A stretch of DNA of 64,000 nt from a virus. Lineage: Duplodnaviria > Caudoviricetes. Numbering within the stretch: the stretch's first letter is position 1; every line of letters begins with the position of its first letter. The position numbers were made by a program, and so were the translations under genes. This document shows, piece after piece, positions 2,916 to 44,845 of this stretch. Location: IMG/VR virus record IMGVR_UViG_3300048629_000034, positions 32,001 to 96,000 of that record; one strand, given 5' to 3'. The notes below the pieces were generated by a model that was given only the letters and a program-made list of their open reading frames with translations, had not been told where the DNA came from and made no database searches.

Positions 2916-3224
2916 TTATTTAGTAGCTAGCTCTTTAGCCATTGCTCTAAATGTTTGATATTCAGAATACTCTTCTGGTTTACTATCCCTATCGTTAGTT
3001 AATGCAATCTCTGCTCCAGCAGTATATTGTGTAGCAATTATAGCTTCAACTATATCACCGTAGCTAGCAGATTTATCTACTTTTACTTCATCACATTCGT
3101 ATGTAGTAATTTCGTTGTTAGTCATTTCGTCTATTTTTGATACTGATTTCATATTGAATCTGTAAACTTTTTTACCTTGTACTTCTTCTGTTTCGTTTGG
3201 CATAACATCGTATTGTGCTTTCAT
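2916..3224 (-). CDS. Small tail-associated hypothetical protein
   Basis: 102 aa, directly after RT; IIATQYTAGAEIAL...EYQTFRAMAK pattern typical of small genes following phage tail fibres; not Avd-like. Confidence 0.5.
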   Translation of the reverse strand: MKAQYDVMPNETEEVQGKKVYRFNMKSVSKIDEMTNNEITTYECDEVKVDKSASYGDIVEAIIATQYTAGAEIALTNDRDSKPEEYSEYQTFRAMAKELATK

Positions 3225-3227
3225 ATT

Positions 3228-4268
3228 TTAATTCCTTATTAATATTTTATTGTTGATTCTTCGATTGGCGAAAATCATTCTTAGTTTGTAGGTAGATATC
3301 GTATTCCATAAATTAAATGAATCTGTAATTATTGACCACCCATTATAGGCTGCAACCTTACCCTTTAGCTGTCTATCTCCAAAATTTTCATGATTATTCG
3401 TAATGTCTCTGAACGTCTTTACCATATTTTTCTTGATTTTGTTTCTTATCATAGTATATTGATGAAAGAATCTGAACCCAAGAAAGTCTACTCCTCGCTT
3501 ATTTACTTGGTATACCTGGTAATTGCCTTTTATTGATAACTTTAATTCTTTATCCAAATACTCCTTTATTGTATTAAATACATCATGAAGATATTCTTTG
3601 TCGTCATGCAATATAACTATATCGTCACAATATCTAAAATAATGCTTTACACCAAGTTTTTCTTTGACCCAATGATCAAAATAAGTTAAGTATAGATTAC
3701 CGAAGTATTGGCTCATATAGTTTCCAATCGGAACACCTTTAGTACTATCTATTATTTCATCAAGCAATGTTAATGTGTCTTTGCATTTAATCTTTTTACG
3801 TATTATTTGTTTTAGTATATCATTGTTTATGCTAGGATAGAATTTTTGCACATCTAGTTGTAAGCAATATACGGGTTTATCTTTTCTGATTATTCGTTCT
3901 ATCTTCTTTTTAGCCTTATGAACACCTCTTCCTCTTATTGATTGGTAGGTGTCAGATATTAGTGTTTTAAACCAGATTGGTTCAAGCACTTGCATTATGG
4001 CATGATGTATAACTCTGTCAGGAAAATATGGTAGTTTATATATTTCTCTTTCTTTACCTTTGTCGTTCTTTATGAATATCTCATATTGACTATTAACAAA
4101 GGTCTTACTTTTAAGCATTTGGTGTATTTTTTCTATGTAGAAGTTTTCGTTTCGGTTGAATCGCATAACTTCTTTATAGTGCTTTTTACCAAGCTGAGCT
4201 CTTTTATGAGCTAATCGTATATTATCTATATTGTATATTTTTTCGTATAAATTATTGTATCTTTTCAT
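3228..4268 (-). CDS. DGR reverse transcriptase
   Basis: Start MKRYNNLYEKI; KxRxI, PDRVIHHA, LDVQKFYPSI, GVPIGNYMSQYFGNLYL (DGR-type SQ), YFRYCDD, GVDFLGF. Confidence 0.95.
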   Translation of the reverse strand: MKRYNNLYEKIYNIDNIRLAHKRAQLGKKHYKEVMRFNRNENFYIEKIHQMLKSKTFVNSQYEIFIKNDKGKEREIYKLPYFPDRVIHHAIMQVLEPIWFKTLISDTYQSIRGRGVHKAKKKIERIIRKDKPVYCLQLDVQKFYPSINNDILKQIIRKKIKCKDTLTLLDEIIDSTKGVPIGNYMSQYFGNLYLTYFDHWVKEKLGVKHYFRYCDDIVILHDDKEYLHDVFNTIKEYLDKELKLSIKGNYQVYQVNKRGVDFLGFRFFHQYTMIRNKIKKNMVKTFRDITNNHENFGDRQLKGKVAAYNGWSIITDSFNLWNTISTYKLRMIFANRRINNKILIRN

Positions 4269-4384
4269 TGTCTTATCACCCCTGAATCTTCCCGTTAGGT
4301 ACCAATACATAATAGAGCATAGCAGTGTGTTTTACCAAGAGGTAAGGGAGCAAATCGTTAAGTATTTGTTGTTTTAATTGATAA

Positions 4385-12149: not shown

Positions 12150-15100
12150 TTAAACATAGCTTGAGAATGCGTTGGTTCTATTTCCTATACTTTTTCTTCT
12201 GTTCGCAAACAGTCTCATGCCTCCAGATGCCTGTGTCCCTACATTATGACCAGCATTTTTTGACATCTCTTGACCTGTCATGCCGCTCATTGGGTAGTTT
12301 ATTTGCATCATAGCTATTTGACTAATCAAATCTGGCCCATCATCATGTCTAGAATTATGAACTATGCATCCGTTAACTACAAAGTTGCTGTAACCAGGAA
12401 CCTCTATATCGTAGACAGGCTCATTCTTTCCTGTGTTTTTTATTTCTTCTATAGAAACTAGATCTGCATTCGACAGAGCAATATTTTTGTCGAATAGTAT
12501 GTCCCATAAATTTTTTTCCACATTCTCTACATTCGCATTCGAATTTAATTGTTTTTCTAGCTTCGTCAATACATATTTTTCCGCAATATTTAGTTTTGTT
12601 TGAAACTGGTGAGACAAATTTCTTTCCGCAATTCTTGCACTCTCTTTCTTCTGACCTAAGTAATCTTTTTTTCTCATTATGTATTTTTGTACATTTTGGA
12701 TTGTTGCATAAAATTTGGTTATGGCTTTGTTGCATAACCTCATTTGAACAGATACTACACTTGATAACTTGAAGCGGTTTATAATCGATATTGAATCTAA
12801 GTTTCTTTGCTTTACTTCGACACGATTCTCCGCAATATTTTGCATCGTTTCTTGAGTTTTTGTGCATAATAAACTCTGTTCCGCACCATTTACATATTCT
12901 GTTGATCTTTCTATTCTGTTGTTTTCTTGCAGATGCTTTTTTTCGGTATGATTTGTCTCTGGCATAGAAATGATCATTTGATCCTTTGTGTATTTTTTGA
13001 TGCTCTTGTCTGGTAAGAATGATGAGATTACATGCTTCATTGTTGTCTTTATTTTCGTCAACATGATGCACATCAAACCCTCGCGGGATTGATGTGCCAG
13101 TTTCTCTTTCAAACACTTCTCTGTGTAACCATTTTCTTTTTCCGTTAATATTTCTTGTGGATTGATAGTATCCGTTTGGTTTTTTTCTCCACTTGAATCC
13201 ATATCTTTCATCTTGCATATACTGTTCCTTATCAATACATCCCAATGCCTCAGATCGTCTACTCTTACATAACCTCTTGCTGTCATAACCCTATGACAAC
13301 CCGTAAGCCTCATAATTAGTCCATCTGCGGTAACTAGTTCATATATCTCTTTATTTCCAGTAAATATAGCATTTTTTGGTTTAACATATGCTGAATACGA
13401 CCCATTTGTTGCTAGTACCATATCCTCATTAGTAATATCAGTTATATACTTTTCTCCGTCAATACACTTAACCAAAGTATCAGCAGAGAAACAACCGAAG
13501 CTGTCGTGTTTTATCATCATCAACTGCTCCATAAGTACTTTCATGTCAGGAATATCCTGAAGCTCTCTCGGAAACCATATCTTTCTGTTCTGGAATAATG
13601 GTAGAGTCATTCTGAACCTCCAGTGCTTATTACCACCTTCCAGTCTACTTGTTATCCCCTCAGAGCCAGCTTTACTACCTTTGGCTCTAGCGAATGTGAA
13701 GAATATACCTTTTCTAGGCATTCTCTCTCTAACTGCTTCTAGGTGAGCTCTTTGGTTCCCATCTAATTCTATACCAACTTCTATGTATCTAGCACCAAGT
13801 GAAGTATATAGTTGCGCAAACCTAAATAACTCATCGTATTGATCTTCTATTGTACATTTTCTAAGCGACAAATCCAACATAAAGTGATCCATATTACTAT
13901 TTACAGCCCACACAGCTATACCACTATAATCACCATTTAGATCATTACTTGAAGTAAAATCTGTTGTGATATATATATTGTAATCACTCATTCTTTTTTG
14001 GATATCTACTCTATTGAACCATTGTATGTAGTTCTGCTGTAGCATTTTATCTTCAGATGTACTTGTTCGCAGATAATGCTCTTGCATTAGTTTCTTCATT
14101 GGTTCTGGATTTCCTGCATCTTTGGCTCTTTGTGCTCTTCGATAATCCCTCATACAGTTCGAGAAGCTATGTCTGTCTGGCCATACTGATACAAATTCAT
14201 CCTCTACCATATCTTCTCTTATTGATTCACCTCTAGGGAACACAACTGGAAGCCAAGTACCTTCTTCAATTCTTCTTGTAACGCTATCATTCTTTCCATA
14301 TGGAGTACCAATTATTACTGCGAAGTTTTTATTATTATTTAAACCAGGAAGCACATCGGCTTCAATAGTACTTTCTATGCTTGTCATTATTGATTTACTT
14401 GCTGCAGCCTTCTCGCCCTTTATCAAATCGTCAAATATTGAGGCATCCGGCCTAGCTAGTCCTGACCTAGTTCCTCTAACCCCAGCTTCAGCTCCAACGC
14501 CACCCAATGTGAATGTTCTAAGCATTCTGCCTGGAACAGTATCTTCTGACTTTCCTTGTTTTATTACATGGTCTTCATATGCTCGTAATTCTGACTTTGT
14601 TATTGGCTTTCTAACAAACAATACTTCATTTACATTTAGTTTCCATGACTCGAAGAATTGTTGCATATATGGACTCTCTAGGAATACTTGCTTAATCATC
14701 CCCATTGTGGTTTTTACATTATTCTCCATTGTGTCCCCTACATATAGCATGTAGTTTATTTTTCCGAAACCTGGAAGTTTCCCTTTAATTGCTGCGAACA
14801 TAAATAAATATGTTACAATACTGCTCTTGCTAAATTCCCTGCAAGACAATATTGCTATTCTGTCATTCATTCCAAAGTAATCAATATTACGAACCATAAA
14901 GAATGGCTGAACATTTGGTTGTCTGAATATACAATCAACGAAGAAGTAATGTGGCAAACTATTGCTGTTCTCTGGTTCTCTACCTAGTGCCATACGAATG
15001 AATGCCATAAACTCTATGGCATGGTCACTTGGGATATACCATTTTAACTTTAGATCTATATTATCTAACAACTTATCCATAGTTATTATCTTATCTTCGA

Positions 15101-15212
15101 ATGCTTTCAATACTATTCCATCAGAACCAACCTCCCACTTGTGATGAGGGTCGACTCCATCTGGATATATTGCAGCTACACTATTTGGTAGCTTATCTGC
15201 TGGTATAAGCAT
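12150..15212 (-). CDS. terL: Terminase large subunit, N4 gp68-like, intein-containing (about 640 aa after splicing)
   Basis: YIPSDHAIEFMAFI, Walker A SCREFSKSS, GVRG, Walker B IFDD, IGTP, nuclease YITTDF and C-terminal HDD. Confidence 0.9.
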   Translation of the reverse strand: MLIPADKLPNSVAAIYPDGVDPHHKWEVGSDGIVLKAFEDKIITMDKLLDNIDLKLKWYIPSDHAIEFMAFIRMALGREPENSNSLPHYFFVDCIFRQPNVQPFFMVRNIDYFGMNDRIAILSCREFSKSSIVTYLFMFAAIKGKLPGFGKINYMLYVGDTMENNVKTTMGMIKQVFLESPYMQQFFESWKLNVNEVLFVRKPITKSELRAYEDHVIKQGKSEDTVPGRMLRTFTLGGVGAEAGVRGTRSGLARPDASIFDDLIKGEKAAASKSIMTSIESTIEADVLPGLNNNKNFAVIIGTPYGKNDSVTRRIEEGTWLPVVFPRGESIREDMVEDEFVSVWPDRHSFSNCMRDYRRAQRAKDAGNPEPMKKLMQEHYLRTSTSEDKMLQQNYIQWFNRVDIQKRMSDYNIYITTDFTSSNDLNGDYSGIAVWAVNSNMDHFMLDLSLRKCTIEDQYDELFRFAQLYTSLGARYIEVGIELDGNQRAHLEAVRERMPRKGIFFTFARAKGSKAGSEGITSRLEGGNKHWRFRMTLPLFQNRKIWFPRELQDIPDMKVLMEQLMMIKHDSFGCFSADTLVKCIDGEKYITDITNEDMVLATNGSYSAYVKPKNAIFTGNKEIYELVTADGLIMRLTGCHRVMTARGYVRVDDLRHWDVLIRNSICKMKDMDSSGEKNQTDTINPQEILTEKENGYTEKCLKEKLAHQSREGLMCIMLTKIKTTMKHVISSFLPDKSIKKYTKDQMIISMPETNHTEKKHLQENNRIERSTEYVNGAEQSLLCTKTQETMQNIAENRVEVKQRNLDSISIINRFKLSSVVSVQMRLCNKAITKFYATIQNVQKYIMRKKDYLGQKKESARIAERNLSHQFQTKLNIAEKYVLTKLEKQLNSNANVENVEKNLWDILFDKNIALSNADLVSIEEIKNTGKNEPVYDIEVPGYSNFVVNGCIVHNSRHDDGPDLISQIAMMQINYPMSGMTGQEMSKNAGHNVGTQASGGMRLFANRRKSIGNRTNAFSSYV
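12354..13493 (-). mobile_element. Intein (380 aa) in terL
   Basis: Starts CFSADTLV; block B LRLTGCH-type (MRLTGCHRV); block F/G VYDIEVPGYSNFVVNGCIVHN followed by Ser; inserted just before the catalytic HDD. Confidence 0.92.
12421..13218 (-). CDS. HNH homing endonuclease with four Zn-finger repeats, nested out of frame inside the intein
   Basis: LHREVF...VHHVDENKDNNEACNL...EHQKIH then four CxxC...[Y/L]C repeats; own AAGGA RBS 7 nt before the ATG at 13218. Confidence 0.88.
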   Translation of the reverse strand: MQDERYGFKWRKKPNGYYQSTRNINGKRKWLHREVFERETGTSIPRGFDVHHVDENKDNNEACNLIILTRQEHQKIHKGSNDHFYARDKSYRKKASARKQQNRKINRICKWCGTEFIMHKNSRNDAKYCGESCRSKAKKLRFNIDYKPLQVIKCSICSNEVMQQSHNQILCNNPKCTKIHNEKKRLLRSEERECKNCGKKFVSPVSNKTKYCGKICIDEARKTIKFECECRECGKKFMGHTIRQKYCSVECRSSFYRRNKKHRKE

Positions 15213-36060: not shown

Positions 36061-36828
36061 ATGAGAATTAAACAATTAGGGAATGGTGGAGGTTTAAATC
36101 CTCAACTGACAAACAGTAGCTTCTTAATAGAATATACATCAAATCAGTTTTTATTGTTTGATTGCGGATTCAATATTATGGATCGATTAATAAAATTAGA
36201 AGAAGACTCAGTTAAACACGATGCATCATTCAGAATATCTAAAATAGATATAGTTTTTGTTAGTCATACAGATGATGATCATATAGGTAACTTACAAACA
36301 TTGATCTACTGGAATTATTTTAAGAACCAAAAGAAGATGGAAATCATTTCACACAATGAAGTATTTGATATTATTGATAAAATGAATACTATTAAAACAG
36401 CAGGTATTGTTGAAGATTTTAAATACTTCATTAAAATAGATATTTCAAACAGAAAAGAAGTGTATTATAATCTTGTTTCTGACTCTATGCTTAAATTGAC
36501 GTTCATTAAGGCATACCACGGATCTAGAAAATGTTATGGATTACTTGCAATCAAAAGCAACAAAGCAATATATATATCAGGAGATACTGTAGCGCATCCT
36601 TCAATAGAGAATACAGTAACAAAAGAAATTAAGTTACAACAAAACATTTCCGGATCAAATCTAAACTCAATTATGTTTCATGATTATAGCCACTGGGATT
36701 GTCCAAGTAAAAATGTTCATGCTTGTAAAACAAACTTCGAGGAAGAATACAGTAAAGAATTTAGAGATAAATTAATCAAGTATCATACAGGTGAGGATGA
36801 CTTCAATAAAGACTGGAGAATACTATAA
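36061..36828 (+). CDS. MBL-fold metallo-phosphodiesterase (Apyc1/RNase Z-like)
   Basis: LGNGG, NSSFLI, LFDCG, SHTDDDHIG, HG, SGDT, FHD, VHA, terminal YH. Confidence 0.75.
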   Translation: MRIKQLGNGGGLNPQLTNSSFLIEYTSNQFLLFDCGFNIMDRLIKLEEDSVKHDASFRISKIDIVFVSHTDDDHIGNLQTLIYWNYFKNQKKMEIISHNEVFDIIDKMNTIKTAGIVEDFKYFIKIDISNRKEVYYNLVSDSMLKLTFIKAYHGSRKCYGLLAIKSNKAIYISGDTVAHPSIENTVTKEIKLQQNISGSNLNSIMFHDYSHWDCPSKNVHACKTNFEEEYSKEFRDKLIKYHTGEDDFNKDWRIL

Positions 36829-37103
36829 TGCCAAGACAAGCTCAATCACTAAAACGTGCTACAACTAAGTTTGTAGCTAGAACAGCAACAACTAGAACAA
36901 TTAATCATTTATTTGGATCTAGTCTTATTGGTTCTATAGCCAAAACGATAGCTAATCACTTAATTAAGTCAGCAGATCAGAAAATATCTCAATCGTAAAA
37001 CATTTGACCGCAATGTCATAAAACTACAATAGTTCAATTGAGATATTGGTGACCATAGTATTTGGTTTAACAACACAAACAAAAAAAAGAGGAAACAAAC
37101 AAA

Positions 37104-37598
37104 ATGGAAAAAACATTCACAGCACAAGAGGTGCAAGCTATAGCTACACAAGCAGTTGAAAATCACGTATCAAACGGAGGAAACGGTATCGTTTCTAAAG
37201 CATTAGATGGTGTAACAGCAACAGGAAGAGCAATCGCAGAGGAAACTCAAGCAAACGCTAAAAGAGAAGCTGGTAGAAGACTATACGATAACATTGAGGA
37301 GTTAATTAACAGCTATATTCTATCTAAAATGAATTTCATGCAAAGATGGTTAACTTCGGATAAAACTAAAAGAATGGCAGTATTAGTTGGTACATATACA
37401 GTTATTCACGCTATTAAATCTGGTGGTTTCGGATTAACTAATTATAGAATAAATCACGCTATGTTAGATTTATTATCATCTGAATGTAATGCAAGAATCA
37501 TGTCATCTGTACTAGGTGGATTTGACACAAATATTGCTAAAGCATTATTTACTAAACCTGAAGTTACTGAAGTAGTTTCAGAAGTAGCAGGAGCATAA
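37104..37598 (+). CDS. Hypothetical protein, first gene of the E1/JAB locus
   Basis: 164 aa; its stop is 2 nt before the peptide gene start. Confidence 0.65.
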   Translation: MEKTFTAQEVQAIATQAVENHVSNGGNGIVSKALDGVTATGRAIAEETQANAKREAGRRLYDNIEELINSYILSKMNFMQRWLTSDKTKRMAVLVGTYTVIHAIKSGGFGLTNYRINHAMLDLLSSECNARIMSSVLGGFDTNIAKALFTKPEVTEVVSEVAGA

Positions 37599-37600
37599 TT

Positions 37601-37735
37601 ATGGCAGCACAATCAGTATCAGATGCTGTAGCTGCTGCATTAGCGGCTGCAGGTACAACAACTACATCAGGAACTACTCCTACAGTGACAACTACGGACT
37701 CAGAAACTCTATCTGTATCTAGTAAAGGTCAATAA
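37601..37735 (+). CDS. 44-aa low-complexity peptide ending SSKGQ (candidate modifier)
   Basis: MAAQSVSDAVAAALAAAGTTTTSGTTPTVTTTDSETLSVSSKGQ; AGGAG RBS; A/T-ending codons like the highly expressed genes; below the ORF-track cutoff. Confidence 0.7.
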   Translation: MAAQSVSDAVAAALAAAGTTTTSGTTPTVTTTDSETLSVSSKGQ

Positions 37736-37820
37736 ACTAAATCATAGTATTTAGATAGATGGTTCTTAATATTCTGTTATTAGAACCATCTAGTGTGTAT
37801 ACTATACAAAGGAACCGATC

Positions 37821-38237
37821 ATGACAATAAACAAAGATTATATTTTAGACCTGCTTAATAATCCAGATAATGGAAACAGAGAGTACCAACTCATAGTATT
37901 CATTCTAAAAAGTGCTGACGAACTAGATAAACTTTATTCTAAACTATTTAGCTGTGTAAAAAGTTACGAAAGGCACAGAGCGGCAGACGTAGTATCATTC
38001 AAAAACTCATTAAAACAACATGCAAAAAATAAAGAAGACTTCTGCTTGTTTATAAGGTTAACTTCGAACAACACTAAATTAGGCTCAATATCTCATAGTG
38101 ACTTCGATTATTTCAATAATCTCTGTGACAAAATTGATGGATATGTATATTATCAGGACTTAAAAACATTAATAATAAGAGACATACCTCGACTTCTACA
38201 TGAACCAAATGCATTCATACTACATGATACTAACTAA
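37821..38237 (+). CDS. LHDTN-tail family protein 1
   Basis: Ends AFILHDTN-stop. Confidence 0.75.
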   Translation: MTINKDYILDLLNNPDNGNREYQLIVFILKSADELDKLYSKLFSCVKSYERHRAADVVSFKNSLKQHAKNKEDFCLFIRLTSNNTKLGSISHSDFDYFNNLCDKIDGYVYYQDLKTLIIRDIPRLLHEPNAFILHDTN

Positions 38238-38267
38238 CAAAACAATCTCAATAAAAAGGATAAACAA

Positions 38268-39272
38268 ATGACACAAGAAAACATAAACTTTAGCAAAAAC
38301 TATTTAGCAGAACAAATCAAATCACGATATGCTATGTTTCCACGAATTAGAGATGGTAAGTCTAATCTAATTATAGACTCTATAGCTCCACATTGGATAT
38401 ACAATAAATTAAAACAAGAGCATCTAGATGATAATGGTAGAGCAACTATAGGCGATAAAAAACCTAAAACAGCATATGCTATATCAGCATACTTTGCAGA
38501 TATCTTTAGAGTACCTAAAGTGCCACTAGCTGATCTACTTGACATACTTGGATATAAACCAAAAGAAATAAATTCTCTTCTATACAAAGTTGCAAAGAAG
38601 AAACATGATATTTGTTTAGTTGGATATGGTGGATCTGGACAAAACTTCACTTACTGGCTAACTGAAATGGCTGGATTACTTGGTAAACAGAATTTATTTG
38701 AATCATTAACTATATATGAGAAAGAACATGTTGAGTATTCAAACATCCTTAGATTTCCAAAAAATGTATTAAATCACAAAAATGGAACTACTCACAAACT
38801 TCATACAATGACAAATGAAGGAATATTGGCTAGAGCAACAAATTTAATTCCAGATTATATAGACCAAGAAGGCGTAGACAAATTATTAGAGGATAAACCA
38901 AACACTATATTCTATGGTGGTGGATCTATACCTACTATGGAAATGTTGTCTAACTACAATTTTGTATCTGCAACTCATGGAAACAATGACTGTACTTTAA
39001 TTGTTAAGCCAGTACAGGACAGTAGAATTCAAATCGAATCTTATGGAGTAATTATGCTATCTTCATTCTTTATGAACCAACTTAGAATGACTATAGGTTT
39101 TCTTGAGTTCTTGGCTCAGGATGATATTGATTGGACTCAAAGAGTATATCTTGACTATAACTTTACTACAGCAGAAACTAGAAGAGATAAGCACAAATAT
39201 AACTGGCAACTAGAACATAGTCAAACAATTGGACTAGAAGAAAATGACGAAGGAGACACTAATGTTAACTAA
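38268..39272 (+). CDS. Divergent ThiF/E1-like adenylating enzyme
   Basis: ICLVGYGGSG nucleotide loop, LTIYEKEHVEYSNILRF (equivalent to DxDxVExSNLxRQ), downstream Lys. Confidence 0.75.
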   Translation: MTQENINFSKNYLAEQIKSRYAMFPRIRDGKSNLIIDSIAPHWIYNKLKQEHLDDNGRATIGDKKPKTAYAISAYFADIFRVPKVPLADLLDILGYKPKEINSLLYKVAKKKHDICLVGYGGSGQNFTYWLTEMAGLLGKQNLFESLTIYEKEHVEYSNILRFPKNVLNHKNGTTHKLHTMTNEGILARATNLIPDYIDQEGVDKLLEDKPNTIFYGGGSIPTMEMLSNYNFVSATHGNNDCTLIVKPVQDSRIQIESYGVIMLSSFFMNQLRMTIGFLEFLAQDDIDWTQRVYLDYNFTTAETRRDKHKYNWQLEHSQTIGLEENDEGDTNVN

Positions 39273-40683
39273 TGACAAAAAATTAGAACAACTATTATTT
39301 GAAGAGGAAGCTGGTAATTTCTATGATATCTATTCTAAAGAGGAAAATGTAGGAGAAGATGATATAGACAAGAATCTTCATAATAATTGCGAGATAATAT
39401 TTACAACAAAGTATAACATACAGCAAACTCAAGACTTACTTACAGCAGGTAAATTTATTATGGATATAGATCCATTAATGGATAATTATAGCAATGAATA
39501 TTTTAGTGATATTACCTCGAAACTTGATGGAGACGATTTTTTAAATAATATTCTTAGGACCTCAGTTGAAATTGAAGGACAATATTCTTTTGCAGATGCA
39601 ATAAATATTATAGCAAATGTAAAAATACAAATGGGTGATGAGTTTTATGGTGCATTGTTAATAGAACCAAATAAACAATACACATTTAATCCTCTACATC
39701 ATTTAGTAGCGGTTGAGTATCTAAAGCACAGAGATGATAATGACACATTTAATGTATTTATATTTAGCAATTCTAATGTAGACAAATTTAATCTTGAAGA
39801 CAATGCTAAGGAAAGAGCAAAAAACAATATCATTAATCAATTGGGAATGTATGCAATCAGAGGAATTGTTAAAAGCAGAAGAATTATTGACGAGTCAAGA
39901 CAATCATTTATTGATAATGTACTTGAAAATGATAAACACGTGCTTAAAACAAAAATATCTTATTCTGCAGAGAGAAATGACAATGGAGACGAAATATATG
40001 TAGTGCCACAACAACTTCTAACGAGTGGCTTAGCAATACCGTATTATGGAACAACATTGTACAAAGTAACAACAAATTCATCAGGAGACAGAAGTTCGTA
40101 TGGTTCACACATTACACCAATGCTTGGAGTAAATACAGCATCTGGATGGTCAGGGAGAAAAGTAGATCATGCAAAAGATATTACTTTTGACTCTGTTTGT
40201 ACAGGAAACGAAGTTTCAACAACTATCAAAGGAATTTTAACGCATAATCATTCTAATCTTTCATCTCCATATTTTAGTAATTGTGTAATGGAAGGGTGGC
40301 ATGAATTATCGCAGGAGGCAATAAATACATCACTAATGATATATAAGGATCTTCTTAACAAGGATACATGTAACAAGCTTGGATTTGATTGTGATGAGGC
40401 TCATAAATTAAACACAAGCAGCGACAATACTGACAAAGCGGAAAATGAAAAGTTAATTGAATCATGGTCAAGCTGTCCATTTAATGACATATCATCTTCA
40501 GAGCCGTGTCCAGCACTGGTATCTTTAAAAGAATATACAGATTACTTGATTGGAGATTCACTATCTAATTTAACAGCTGGAGAAATATTACTTAGATACA
40601 GAGAAGCAAATAAATACCTATCTGGAATCGATACAGACTACACAACGCCAGATGGTGCTAAATGCGAACCATGTACAGAATAA
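39262..40683 (+). CDS. Putative prokaryotic E2-like protein
   Basis: HITPMLGVN...SVCTG...NLSSPY recalls the E2 HPN...xCxG...NxxSP layout; lies between E1 and JAB; start moved to MLTNDKK (AAGGAG RBS). Confidence 0.45.
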   Translation: MLTNDKKLEQLLFEEEAGNFYDIYSKEENVGEDDIDKNLHNNCEIIFTTKYNIQQTQDLLTAGKFIMDIDPLMDNYSNEYFSDITSKLDGDDFLNNILRTSVEIEGQYSFADAINIIANVKIQMGDEFYGALLIEPNKQYTFNPLHHLVAVEYLKHRDDNDTFNVFIFSNSNVDKFNLEDNAKERAKNNIINQLGMYAIRGIVKSRRIIDESRQSFIDNVLENDKHVLKTKISYSAERNDNGDEIYVVPQQLLTSGLAIPYYGTTLYKVTTNSSGDRSSYGSHITPMLGVNTASGWSGRKVDHAKDITFDSVCTGNEVSTTIKGILTHNHSNLSSPYFSNCVMEGWHELSQEAINTSLMIYKDLLNKDTCNKLGFDCDEAHKLNTSSDNTDKAENEKLIESWSSCPFNDISSSEPCPALVSLKEYTDYLIGDSLSNLTAGEILLRYREANKYLSGIDTDYTTPDGAKCEPCTE

Positions 40684-40699
40684 AAAAAAAGGAATACAA

Positions 40700-41929
40700 A
40701 TGAAAAAACAAACATATAGACAACCTAAGCCGCAAGCCCAATTTGACTATCTAACTAGACAATTTAAAACTAGACAAAAAGATTTAATTAAGGATAATAA
40801 ATCAACAAATAACTATGGTATATTATTATTGAACCAACAAAACCTGGACAACATCAGACATAAATCAGAGGTAAATATTACAACTCATGATGAATATGGA
40901 TTTCATTACAGAGCTTTAGTAGCTAGAGTTGTAACTGGATCGGGGAATACATCTGAGTTTCTTGACATTTGTATTCCAACTGTATATTATAATTACAAAC
41001 AAGAAGTGTCTGGAGGAGAAGTTGAATTTCATTTAGCGGATGTTGAAGCAGCGGCAAACGAAGTAAAACCTCTATCAGATATGATGGTTAACAAACTATT
41101 TGAATCTGACATTTCACTGGGGACTAGACTTAATAATCTATTTAATGAATTGAAGATAAAAGCAGAGTATTTCGATGTAGGGGTTAACTCTATTCATATG
41201 CATCCAGCAGGACTACATAGATTCTCTGGTGGAGACCTTGACACTGATCATACTAATCCTGGAATTTGTTTTCCTCTTAGTAAAGCAGAAAAAGAAACTA
41301 ATTTTGCATCTATTGTAACTAGACGAGGTAAAGGAGTTATTCTTGGACATACTGAATATAGAATTGCAGATGGCGATGTATCTACAAATGAACCAATCAA
41401 TTACTATCACGGTAAATCAATTACTTTAGTAAAAGGATATGCTCCAACAGACGATAGAACTACTATGCAAAAGTTACTTGGATTTAAAGTAGATGAACCA
41501 ATTAAATCATATACTGTATCTGACGGTTTAGACTTGTCTGACTTTGCAAACAAAGTAAATGAACTATTCAATGAGTCTGATTATGTTGCATTTGATGATA
41601 CTGTAATTTCAGATAATGTATCTAAATATGTATACAAACCAAAGCCAGTAGCAAAAAAGAAACCAGCAATTGCAGCTTCTAAGCAAAAAACTATTACAGC
41701 CAAACATGTAGAACTAAAGATAGTATATACAGATAAAACCACTGGAGATAAATATACTCAAGATGATATTGATGACATAATTGAAGAACTAATGTATTCG
41801 AGTACTGGAGTAAGCAAAGCAGAACTTATGCAACTAGAATACAAAGAGCTAGTAGATAGATATGAAGAATATATTATGAGACCAGGAAGCTACTCTTTTG
41901 GAGGATTTGGGTATGATTATGACTATTAA
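40700..41929 (+). CDS. JAB/JAMM metallopeptidase-like protein
   Basis: N-terminal Glu (HDEYG), QEVSGGEVEF, SIHMHP-x5-FSGGD; start moved to MKKQTY. Confidence 0.75.
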   Translation: MKKQTYRQPKPQAQFDYLTRQFKTRQKDLIKDNKSTNNYGILLLNQQNLDNIRHKSEVNITTHDEYGFHYRALVARVVTGSGNTSEFLDICIPTVYYNYKQEVSGGEVEFHLADVEAAANEVKPLSDMMVNKLFESDISLGTRLNNLFNELKIKAEYFDVGVNSIHMHPAGLHRFSGGDLDTDHTNPGICFPLSKAEKETNFASIVTRRGKGVILGHTEYRIADGDVSTNEPINYYHGKSITLVKGYAPTDDRTTMQKLLGFKVDEPIKSYTVSDGLDLSDFANKVNELFNESDYVAFDDTVISDNVSKYVYKPKPVAKKKPAIAASKQKTITAKHVELKIVYTDKTTGDKYTQDDIDDIIEELMYSSTGVSKAELMQLEYKELVDRYEEYIMRPGSYSFGGFGYDYDY

Positions 41930-44091: not shown

Positions 44092-44484
44092 ATGAGTATA
44101 AAAAGACAAAATAACAAAACATTTATTTGTGAGATAGGGATGGAACTAAATAGACTTCCAAGGAATGGATATTTACTTATGCAAGCTTCCAATAATAATG
44201 AATGGCTACAACTTACTAGCACTTTACGTGAAAATCATAAATATTTAGGCGTGCCACTGTCTAAAGAAATGCTAAATTTATTTGAGGACACAAGAAATAA
44301 AGACTTTTTTATGTTATGTATTCAAAAAAATCAACACCACGAATTAAAGTTATCATTAGTATCTAAACTTTACGTAAACAGTTTAAGTTTTAAAAAAATG
44401 AATTATATATATAAGATATTTGACATTTCTACATTCTTTAAAAAAACAACAACAAATCAATTCATACTACACGACACTAATTAA
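44092..44484 (+). CDS. LHDTN-tail family protein 2
   Basis: Ends NQFILHDTN-stop. Confidence 0.75.
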   Translation: MSIKRQNNKTFICEIGMELNRLPRNGYLLMQASNNNEWLQLTSTLRENHKYLGVPLSKEMLNLFEDTRNKDFFMLCIQKNQHHELKLSLVSKLYVNSLSFKKMNYIYKIFDISTFFKKTTTNQFILHDTN

Positions 44485-44503: not shown

Positions 44504-44845
44504 ATGCTAAGAAAAATATCAGAATGCAAAATACTAAGCGAACTTGAAAAAGTAATTGACAACAACAGAAGAGTTGTAATACTAGCTGATAATAAAGAAG
44601 AGTGGGATGATATTTTACGGTTTATATTTTCTCAACAAAAGTATGAATTAACAGCATCAACTTCTAAATTAGACACTTGGTTGCCATATTATGTAAAGTA
44701 TAAAAGAGACGCAATAGTAATCACAAGGTTAAACGACACATTGAGACTTACTCACACAGAGCGTATATATGCCAAAGAAAGCTCTGATATTATAATAAGC
44801 ATAAACAGAAGAGATAACCAATTCATACTGCACGACACAAATTAA
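44504..44845 (+). CDS. LHDTN-tail family protein 3
   Basis: Ends NQFILHDTN-stop. Confidence 0.75.
   Translation: MLRKISECKILSELEKVIDNNRRVVILADNKEEWDDILRFIFSQQKYELTASTSKLDTWLPYYVKYKRDAIVITRLNDTLRLTHTERIYAKESSDIIISINRRDNQFILHDTN

Follow-up and report, generated by a model that had tools for sequence, protein, structure and literature searches.

The known bacterial ubiquitin-like systems, i.e. Bil, Bub and the cyclic oligonucleotide-based antiphage signalling system (CBASS), defend against phages. To our knowledge, every well-studied modifier of E1/E2-type enzymes is a beta-grasp protein, and the nearest exception is the tail of the CBASS CD-NTase. In type II CBASS, Cap2, an E2-E1 fusion, and the JAB protease Cap3 act on the C-terminus of the CD-NTase (PMC10097602; bioRxiv 10.1101/2022.03.31.486616). 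Bil antiphage operons encode a ubiquitin-like protein (BilA), an E2 (BilB), a JAB protease (BilC) and an E1 (BilD) (PMC10557695), Bub pathways comprise BubAB, BubCD and BubE (PMC11601596), and further relevant operon classes have been described by Iyer, Burroughs and Aravind (PMC1779556). The locus analysed here lies in bases 32001-96000 of a virus record from IMG/VR (IMGVR_UViG_3300048629_000034; 113 kb, ~90 % complete), a stretch of 64,000 nucleotides referred to as the window. It combines genes for a short peptide, a ThiF/E1-like enzyme, a middle protein with one invariant Cys and a JAB-like protease. With a probability of about 60 %, judged from sequence comparisons, these genes form a phage-encoded activation and conjugation module of the ubiquitin type, whose modifier would be a peptide of ~35-48 residues and not a beta-grasp protein.

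This locus differs from each of the described systems. Type II CBASS uses a whole enzyme as modifier together with an E2-E1 fusion, Cap2, that has catalytic cysteines, and it serves bacterial defence, whereas the phage module would use a free peptide of ~40 aa and consists of separate, phage-owned genes, including that of an E1-like enzyme without a conserved Cys. The Bil system is bacterial, has another gene order and relies on BilA, a folded ubiquitin-like protein. In Bub pathways, JAB-E1 and ubiquitin-like-E2 fusions, serine oxyesters and a beta-grasp modifier are found, while the phage carrier candidate has an invariant Cys instead. None of the CBASS Cap2/Cap3, Bil and Bub systems or the operon classes of Iyer and colleagues has a free short peptide modifier, and none of them is phage-owned. 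No description of the module family was found in the literature searched.

A comparison with Pup is also informative. Pup is attached via the carboxylate of a side chain, and its ligase resembles glutamine synthetase (PafA; Dop). The candidate modifier resembles it in being small and probably unfolded and in having a last residue that would be changed or removed before ligation, but the enzymes of the phage module are of the ubiquitin type. At E <= 1, the model for PafA/Dop-type ligases (PF03136) matched nothing in the 113-kb genome but did match the control, Corynebacterium glutamicum. The preliminary description of this DNA had proposed a virus-encoded short peptide tag handled by ubiquitin-type enzymes, an interpretation that is supported by the conserved Gly with its tail, the tandem precursors and the enzyme families described below.

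A conserved peptide gene with a Gly-plus-tail end

Viral, metagenome and genome collections were searched for related loci by look-ups and pattern scans, which gave ~40 loci, roughly 28 of them distinct. Peptide counts out of 28 refer to the distinct loci with upstream sequence, the window included. The 44-aa, Ala/Thr/Ser-rich open reading frame (ORF) ending in SSKGQ had been picked out beforehand, together with a good ribosome-binding site, and both were confirmed. It had also been expected to persist in homologous loci if the proposal was sound. An ORF of 37-54 aa, or a tandem version of it, is located 5' of the E1-like gene in all 28 loci, directly so except in the window and in locus L010, where one gene lies in between. 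The column of window Gly43 (codon 37727-37729) is Gly in 27 of the 28 peptides and is followed by one to eight unconserved residues in every precursor; none ends at the Gly itself. Processing at this column would expose in these 27 peptides the C-terminal Gly that characterises ubiquitin-like modifiers. For the window, the predicted mature peptide comprises residues 1-43, with Gln44 as the tail for removal.

The peptide alignment contains a helix-like N-terminal stretch with a hydrophobic face, a Thr/Ser-rich middle with short V-x-V/T segments, and a C-terminal (K)SG or KSGSG. Predicted mature peptides have 34-48 residues (36-48 among the 24 aligned peptides; 34 in L005, which was read manually) and a middle rich in Thr, Ser and Gly. 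A beta-grasp domain has about 65 residues or more, and the earlier view that the peptide would be too short for this fold thus holds for the predicted mature forms. Pfam yielded no match for the peptide. Its gene is present as a single copy in the genome, and synonymous codon differences equal or outnumber non-synonymous ones in several pairs (e.g. 18:11 and 17:12), which points to purifying selection on the ORF. With a profile built without the peptides of the window and of L002, its closest relative, the window ORF ranks first of 1167 window ORFs. The same profile matches the independent L091 peptide at an E-value of 5e-16 and the L089 peptide at 5.5e-5. When the window and L089 peptides were compared directly, their similarity had a z-score of 8.1, and none of 2000 shuffles reached the score.

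Two loci encode the peptide in tandem. In L012, a 171-bp unit makes up the whole gene and is present in 4.1 copies (95 % matches); every unit has ...KSG at its end, the next one starts at once, and the last is followed by a single Lys. L031 has one partial and one full unit, both ending in ...GSG. Without a cut after the Gly, such arrangements would be difficult to account for. Polyubiquitin genes likewise contain head-to-tail units ending in Gly, the last with one extra residue. Unlike the 76-residue beta-grasp domains of polyubiquitin, however, the phage units comprise 44-57 residues of low-complexity sequence. A double-glycine leader was considered as well and rejected, since tandem units and variable tails both locate cleavage at the C-terminal Gly.

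The expression signals of the peptide gene are also conserved. GGAG or AAGGAG is found ~5-13 nt 5' of the start in the 24 aligned peptide genes, and in the window, the ATG follows 2 nt after the stop codon of the upstream gene, called P164 here. A hairpin lies just 3' of the peptide stop codon in all 25 folded loci, with z-scores from -2.1 to -8.2 (-5.2 against shuffles in the window). Its position fits a higher demand for the peptide than for the enzymes. Fusion of P164 and the peptide by programmed frameshifting was rejected because stop/start coupling and a strong ribosome-binding site are the simpler explanation.

Three putative enzyme families

Established resources are of limited use for these proteins. 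Pfam, PHROGs, PADLOC and NCBIfam provided no usable match for the three enzymes, P164 or the peptide, no PADLOC model matched the module, and PRTRC and Prok-E2_D/Prok_Ub models (NCBIfam, Pfam) had no match at E <= 1 among the three enzymes of three loci. The enzyme motifs are invariant or near-invariant in alignments of 15 to 89 homologues with 20-40 % identity to the window protein, which argues that they are not chance occurrences.

The first enzyme is, on profile comparison, a diverged ThiF/E1-type adenylating enzyme of the ThiF/MoeB/E1 superfamily (PF00899), as had been suspected. Its family core aligned with 26 genuine ThiF domains over 147 columns (hhalign probability 94.2 %, P 1.2e-7), whereas negative controls gave P-values of 0.61 and 0.77. 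All named structure neighbours of the protein in the ESM Atlas are ThiF or BilD_N, with ThiF at TM-scores of 0.50-0.57. Pfam had no match for the window protein and found ThiF weakly in 4 of 15 family members (best E-value 0.02), and a search of the family profile against PDB sequences returned chance-level matches only. Across 15 sequences, G119, G121, G122, N159 and R162 are invariant and K177 is near-invariant. These residues align with ThiF motifs, and the ThiF-type GxGGxG loop, the acidic residue at the end of beta-2 and the Arg of SNLxR are all present. Two caveats raised earlier were correct: the window has E-K-E at the D-x-D position of ThiF, and no Cys is invariant or near-invariant in the family alignment. 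Because of the missing Cys, the enzyme is classed as ThiF/MoeB/BubCD-like and not as a canonical Uba-type E1.

The JAB peptidase assignment was borne out by fold, and the product of the third enzyme gene has a JAMM-type MPN fold. Sequence profiles were weak for this family: in a comparison with 28 genuine Prok-JAB domains, hhalign aligned only the motif (P 0.05), so that a fold search was needed for the assignment. In addition, Pfam Prok-JAB matched 3 of 17 JAB-like proteins, and the profile search against PDB sequences was again at chance level. The fold search recovered the MPN fold, and its best matches included Cap3, BubCD and a Bil-type deubiquitinase. The protein has the JAMM zinc-site motif H-x-H-x7-S-x2-D together with an upstream Glu. 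H166, H168, D179 and E65, the candidate for this Glu, are invariant in 17-22 sequences, S176 is near-invariant, and the spacer of the motif varies from 7 to 12 residues in the 17-member alignment. In two loci, the JAB-like gene is present as two ORFs (L016, 7044-7478 and 7834-8760; L032, 7056-7508 and 7537-8469), which may reflect an intervening element, a frameshift or a real split.

The middle protein is the most difficult to assign. Its family is large and yet unannotated, with 196 representative clusters in a 50 %-identity library (E <= 1e-3) and no name in Pfam, PHROGs, PADLOC or NCBIfam. Cys313 is the one Cys that is invariant across 89 sequences. The loop that contains it follows a beta-meander and precedes three helices, an order of elements known from UBC domains. 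UBC is also the most recurrent known fold among the matches to the protein, all of which are weak: out of 48,161 chains compared, UBC chains fill 12 of the 50 best rows, and a giant-virus E2 is found at rank 18 of the BFVD matches. Foldseek on the PDB and a shape search of the ESM Atlas returned nothing convincing, the family profile had no matches among PDB sequences, and Prok-E2_B, sought for a reference E2 profile, was not found in 301 sampled genomes. The HPN motif, which lies ~8 residues before the catalytic Cys in UBC domains, is absent, as no member of the family contains His-Pro-Asn. Instead, the family has the motif (S/T)-P-M-x-S-x-N, with an invariant N291 ~22 residues before C313 at a variable distance. 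The E2 assignment is still weak.

The main competitor of the conjugation module arises at this point. The JAB-like protease could trim and the E1-like enzyme adenylate the peptide as proposed, while the middle protein is an acceptor or substrate, a scaffold or another Cys enzyme, and ligation proceeds straight from the acyl-adenylate. This is unlikely, although it deserves more weight than the other alternatives, since the invariant Cys loop in UBC element order and the UBC and giant-virus E2 matches all speak against a middle protein unrelated to E2.

Proposed pathway and remaining alternatives

For the conjugation module with a peptide modifier, a pathway can be outlined whose cleavage, adenylation and conjugation steps, as well as the existence of a target, we infer from the conserved features described above. 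The JAB-like protease would cut the precursor after the conserved Gly, i.e. between Gly43 and Gln44 in the window and between the units of tandem precursors. Since no precursor ends at the Gly itself, each would need such a protease, and a JAB-like gene is encoded in every locus except L012. The E1-like enzyme would then adenylate the new C-terminal Gly with ATP; lacking a conserved Cys, it probably works like MoeB, ThiF or BubCD and not like Uba1. From the adenylate, the acyl group would pass to the invariant Cys313 of the middle protein as the E2-like carrier, and the peptide would finally be joined to an amino group of a phage or host protein. The JAB-like protease may also reverse this joining, and the hairpin 3' of the peptide gene would ensure that more peptide than enzyme is made. 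A more extensive version is tentative, with chances slightly below even. It holds that a family of uncultured phages of ~100 kb runs a tagging pathway of its own, in which a "mini-ubiquitin" of ~40 residues is used that cannot accommodate the ubiquitin fold. Its precursor would be tailed or polymeric and subject to JAB trimming; activation would fall to an E1 without Cys, and transfer to host or phage proteins during infection to an E2-like Cys enzyme of a new type.

If a module of this kind exists, the beta-grasp fold may be dispensable, and ubiquitin-type enzymes would need only a Gly-ended C-terminal tail. It would also represent a minimal, genetically encodable tagging system. Its ownership by a phage suggests that viruses use such chemistry themselves, perhaps in tagging host or virion proteins or in overcoming defences of this kind.

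Several observations weigh against the proposed module. No JAB-like gene was found in L012, which is the sole exception to the synteny of the four-gene core among contigs that extend far enough. The key position is occupied by Ser in L002 (...SSKS-ESTI), the closest relative of the window. The window peptide itself reaches an E-value of just 1.4 in the leave-out profile and is the most divergent member, so that its membership rests on synteny and on the similarity to the L089 peptide; by these comparisons it appears to be a divergent but linked member of the family. In the E1-like enzyme, the Asp of the ThiF motif VVDxxDN aligns with the near-invariant Tyr216 (hhalign; the local alignment may be shifted) in a segment that reads YGAP(D/N) in most homologues and YGGGS in the window. 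The adenylation chemistry may therefore differ from that of ThiF. Finally, among the loci compared, no E3-like gene or other conserved candidate stands out besides the gene directly upstream of the peptide gene, which is of the P164 or VNG type described below.

Beyond the role of the middle protein, the function of the peptide could be different altogether. CysO/Mec+ and QbsE/QbsD/QbsC are thiocarboxylate sulfur-carrier systems after JAB trimming. They show the same pattern of a carrier that ends in Gly plus a tail, a JAB protease and a ThiF-type enzyme without Cys, and the phage peptide could correspondingly be a sulfur carrier whose trimmed Gly is adenylated and turned into a thiocarboxylate that serves in biosynthesis. 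This is improbable, as no rhodanese domain, cysteine desulfurase or sulfur-assimilation gene occurs in any locus, known carriers are beta-grasp proteins, and tandem polyprotein precursors are not known for sulfur carriers.

Just as improbable is an arrangement as in type II CBASS, where the tail of a full-size enzyme is the site of action of Cap2 and Cap3 (PMC10097602). The phage enzymes would in that case modify the C-terminal end of some other protein, with the peptide as a regulator or small structural protein and not as a substrate. However, a conserved Gly followed by a tail is seen at the end of no other conserved protein in the loci, the VNG and P164 proteins have variable C-termini, and a regulator would have no use for tandem units that are cut at Gly.

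Least probable of all is a precursor role for the peptide in making a ribosomal natural product or peptidyl-nucleotide, with the E1-like enzyme modifying its C-terminus and the JAB-like protease maturing it: the N-terminal helix could be a recognition leader, a hairpin after the precursor gene is typical of such clusters, and E1-superfamily enzymes do activate the C-terminus of short ribosomal peptides (MccB on MccA, PaaA on PaaP), but these peptides end in Asn or are processed at Glu-Glu-Asn, yield antibiotics and involve neither a JAB nor a Cys carrier, while the phage loci have a Gly with a variable tail instead of Asn, no conserved transporter or immunity gene and a setting in the early/replication region of lytic-type ~100-kb phages.

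Operon layout, neighbouring genes and genome context

The features of the module and its upstream neighbours are listed in Table 1.

Table 1. Features of the peptide-E1-middle-JAB locus in window coordinates
Feature	Position	Strand	Remark
Small basic protein, 56 aa, hydrophobic C-terminal half, possible accessory	36828..36998	+	
P164 accessory protein, 164 aa, motif GGFGLT.YRINH	37104..37598	+	
AGGAG ribosome-binding site of the peptide gene	37589..37593	+	7 nt before ATG
Candidate precursor of the peptide modifier, 44 aa, Ala/Thr/Ser-rich, ends SSKG-Q	37601..37735	+	conserved ORF in 28/28 loci
Stem-loop directly after the peptide stop codon, core stem ~37757-37791	37744..37805	+	minimum free energy -23.3 kcal/mol
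Inserted gene outside the module, 138 aa, ends FILHDTN	37821..38237	+	
ThiF/E1-type adenylating enzyme (predicted), 334 aa, motifs GYGGSG and VEYSNILRF, no conserved catalytic Cys	38268..39272	+	
Middle protein, 473 aa, VCTG and NLSSPY, invariant Cys313, candidate carrier/conjugating (E2-like) enzyme	39262..40683	+	
JAMM/MPN+ metalloprotease, N-terminal ~270 aa followed by a variable helical C-terminal region	40700..41929	+	H-M-H-P-x5-F-S-G-G-D

The order of E1-like, middle and JAB-like genes is kept in all loci long enough to show it, and stop and start codons often overlap. In the window, a purine-rich ribosome-binding site precedes each of the starts at 38268, 39262 and 40700 (GAAGGAG before 39262, AAGGAA before 40700). 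The genes given in the preliminary description are all present and lie on the + strand; the 138-aa gene was not mentioned there. This gene is considered an insertion because it is not present between the peptide and E1-like genes of the two closest relatives, L002 and L089. At the same spot, L010 carries an inserted 295-aa Cys-rich gene (3197-4084), so the intergenic region appears to tolerate insertions. The C-terminal tag FILHDTN is common to otherwise unrelated small genes in the window, namely the 138-aa gene and those at 44092-44484 and 44504-44845.

Two kinds of genes precede the peptide gene, encoding either a Lys-rich "KY.I.VNG" protein of 85-108 aa (VNG) or a protein of 164-204 aa as in the window (P164 type). 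Their stop codon usually overlaps the start codon of the peptide gene, which couples the two genes, and the variable C-termini of both kinds are shaped by the overlapping ribosome-binding site. Members of the P164 family occur in 11 locus entries (~7 distinct contigs), in each case immediately 5' of the peptide gene, and have no Pfam or PHROG match. A resemblance of the VNG protein to ThiS is weak both in Pfam (E-value 0.052, one member) and in hhalign (probability 20 % over 14 columns). Proteins of the two kinds could be chaperones, adaptors or targets. The small basic protein with a hydrophobic C-terminal half just 5' of the P164-type gene has counterparts in L005 (2918-3145), L024, L037 (3021-3185) and L089 (3135-3290), with their likeness judged by eye, and may belong to the module.

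A gene with a metallo-beta-lactamase fold is found near the module in several loci (window 36061-36828, L002 4009-4755, L008 6288-7064). The L002 homologue has a recorded match to the anti-Pycsar Apyc1 family, and the match of the window protein is faint (E-value 0.073). E2-E1-JAB triple-module operons almost always adjoin a metallo-beta-lactamase gene (Iyer et al. 2006).

In the genome, PHROG matches include a large terminase, a tail protein, helicases, a primase, an RNA ligase and a reverse transcriptase. The module lies in a block of + strand genes amid replication and nucleotide-metabolism genes, directly followed by a PD-(D/E)XK exonuclease gene. Its genomic setting is the early and replication region of lytic-type phages of ~100 kb. 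No resemblance to the region was detected in the cultured phages of INPHARED at the DNA or protein level (blastn and tblastn, four queries), and a scan for promoter and terminator consensus sites did not find more of them than in shuffled sequence. The E1-like protein has few detectable homologues among 5.8 billion proteins. Among 185,579 species genomes, the family occurs only on two short contigs of one Peptostreptococcaceae metagenome-assembled genome, and it is confined to phage-like contigs.

Further observations concern other genes of these phages. The large terminase gene of the window (12150-15212, - strand) is unusually long. It encodes 1020 aa, of which residues 104-567 match the terminase, and a weak helicase-like stretch follows this match and may represent an insertion or a fusion. 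The reverse-transcriptase gene is located at 3228-4310 on the - strand of the window (phrog_1423, E-value 2e-109). In three related loci, a reverse-transcriptase-like gene is present shortly 3' of the JAB-like gene (L010 8582-9325; L011 8294-9043; L091 6925-7842, RVT_1).

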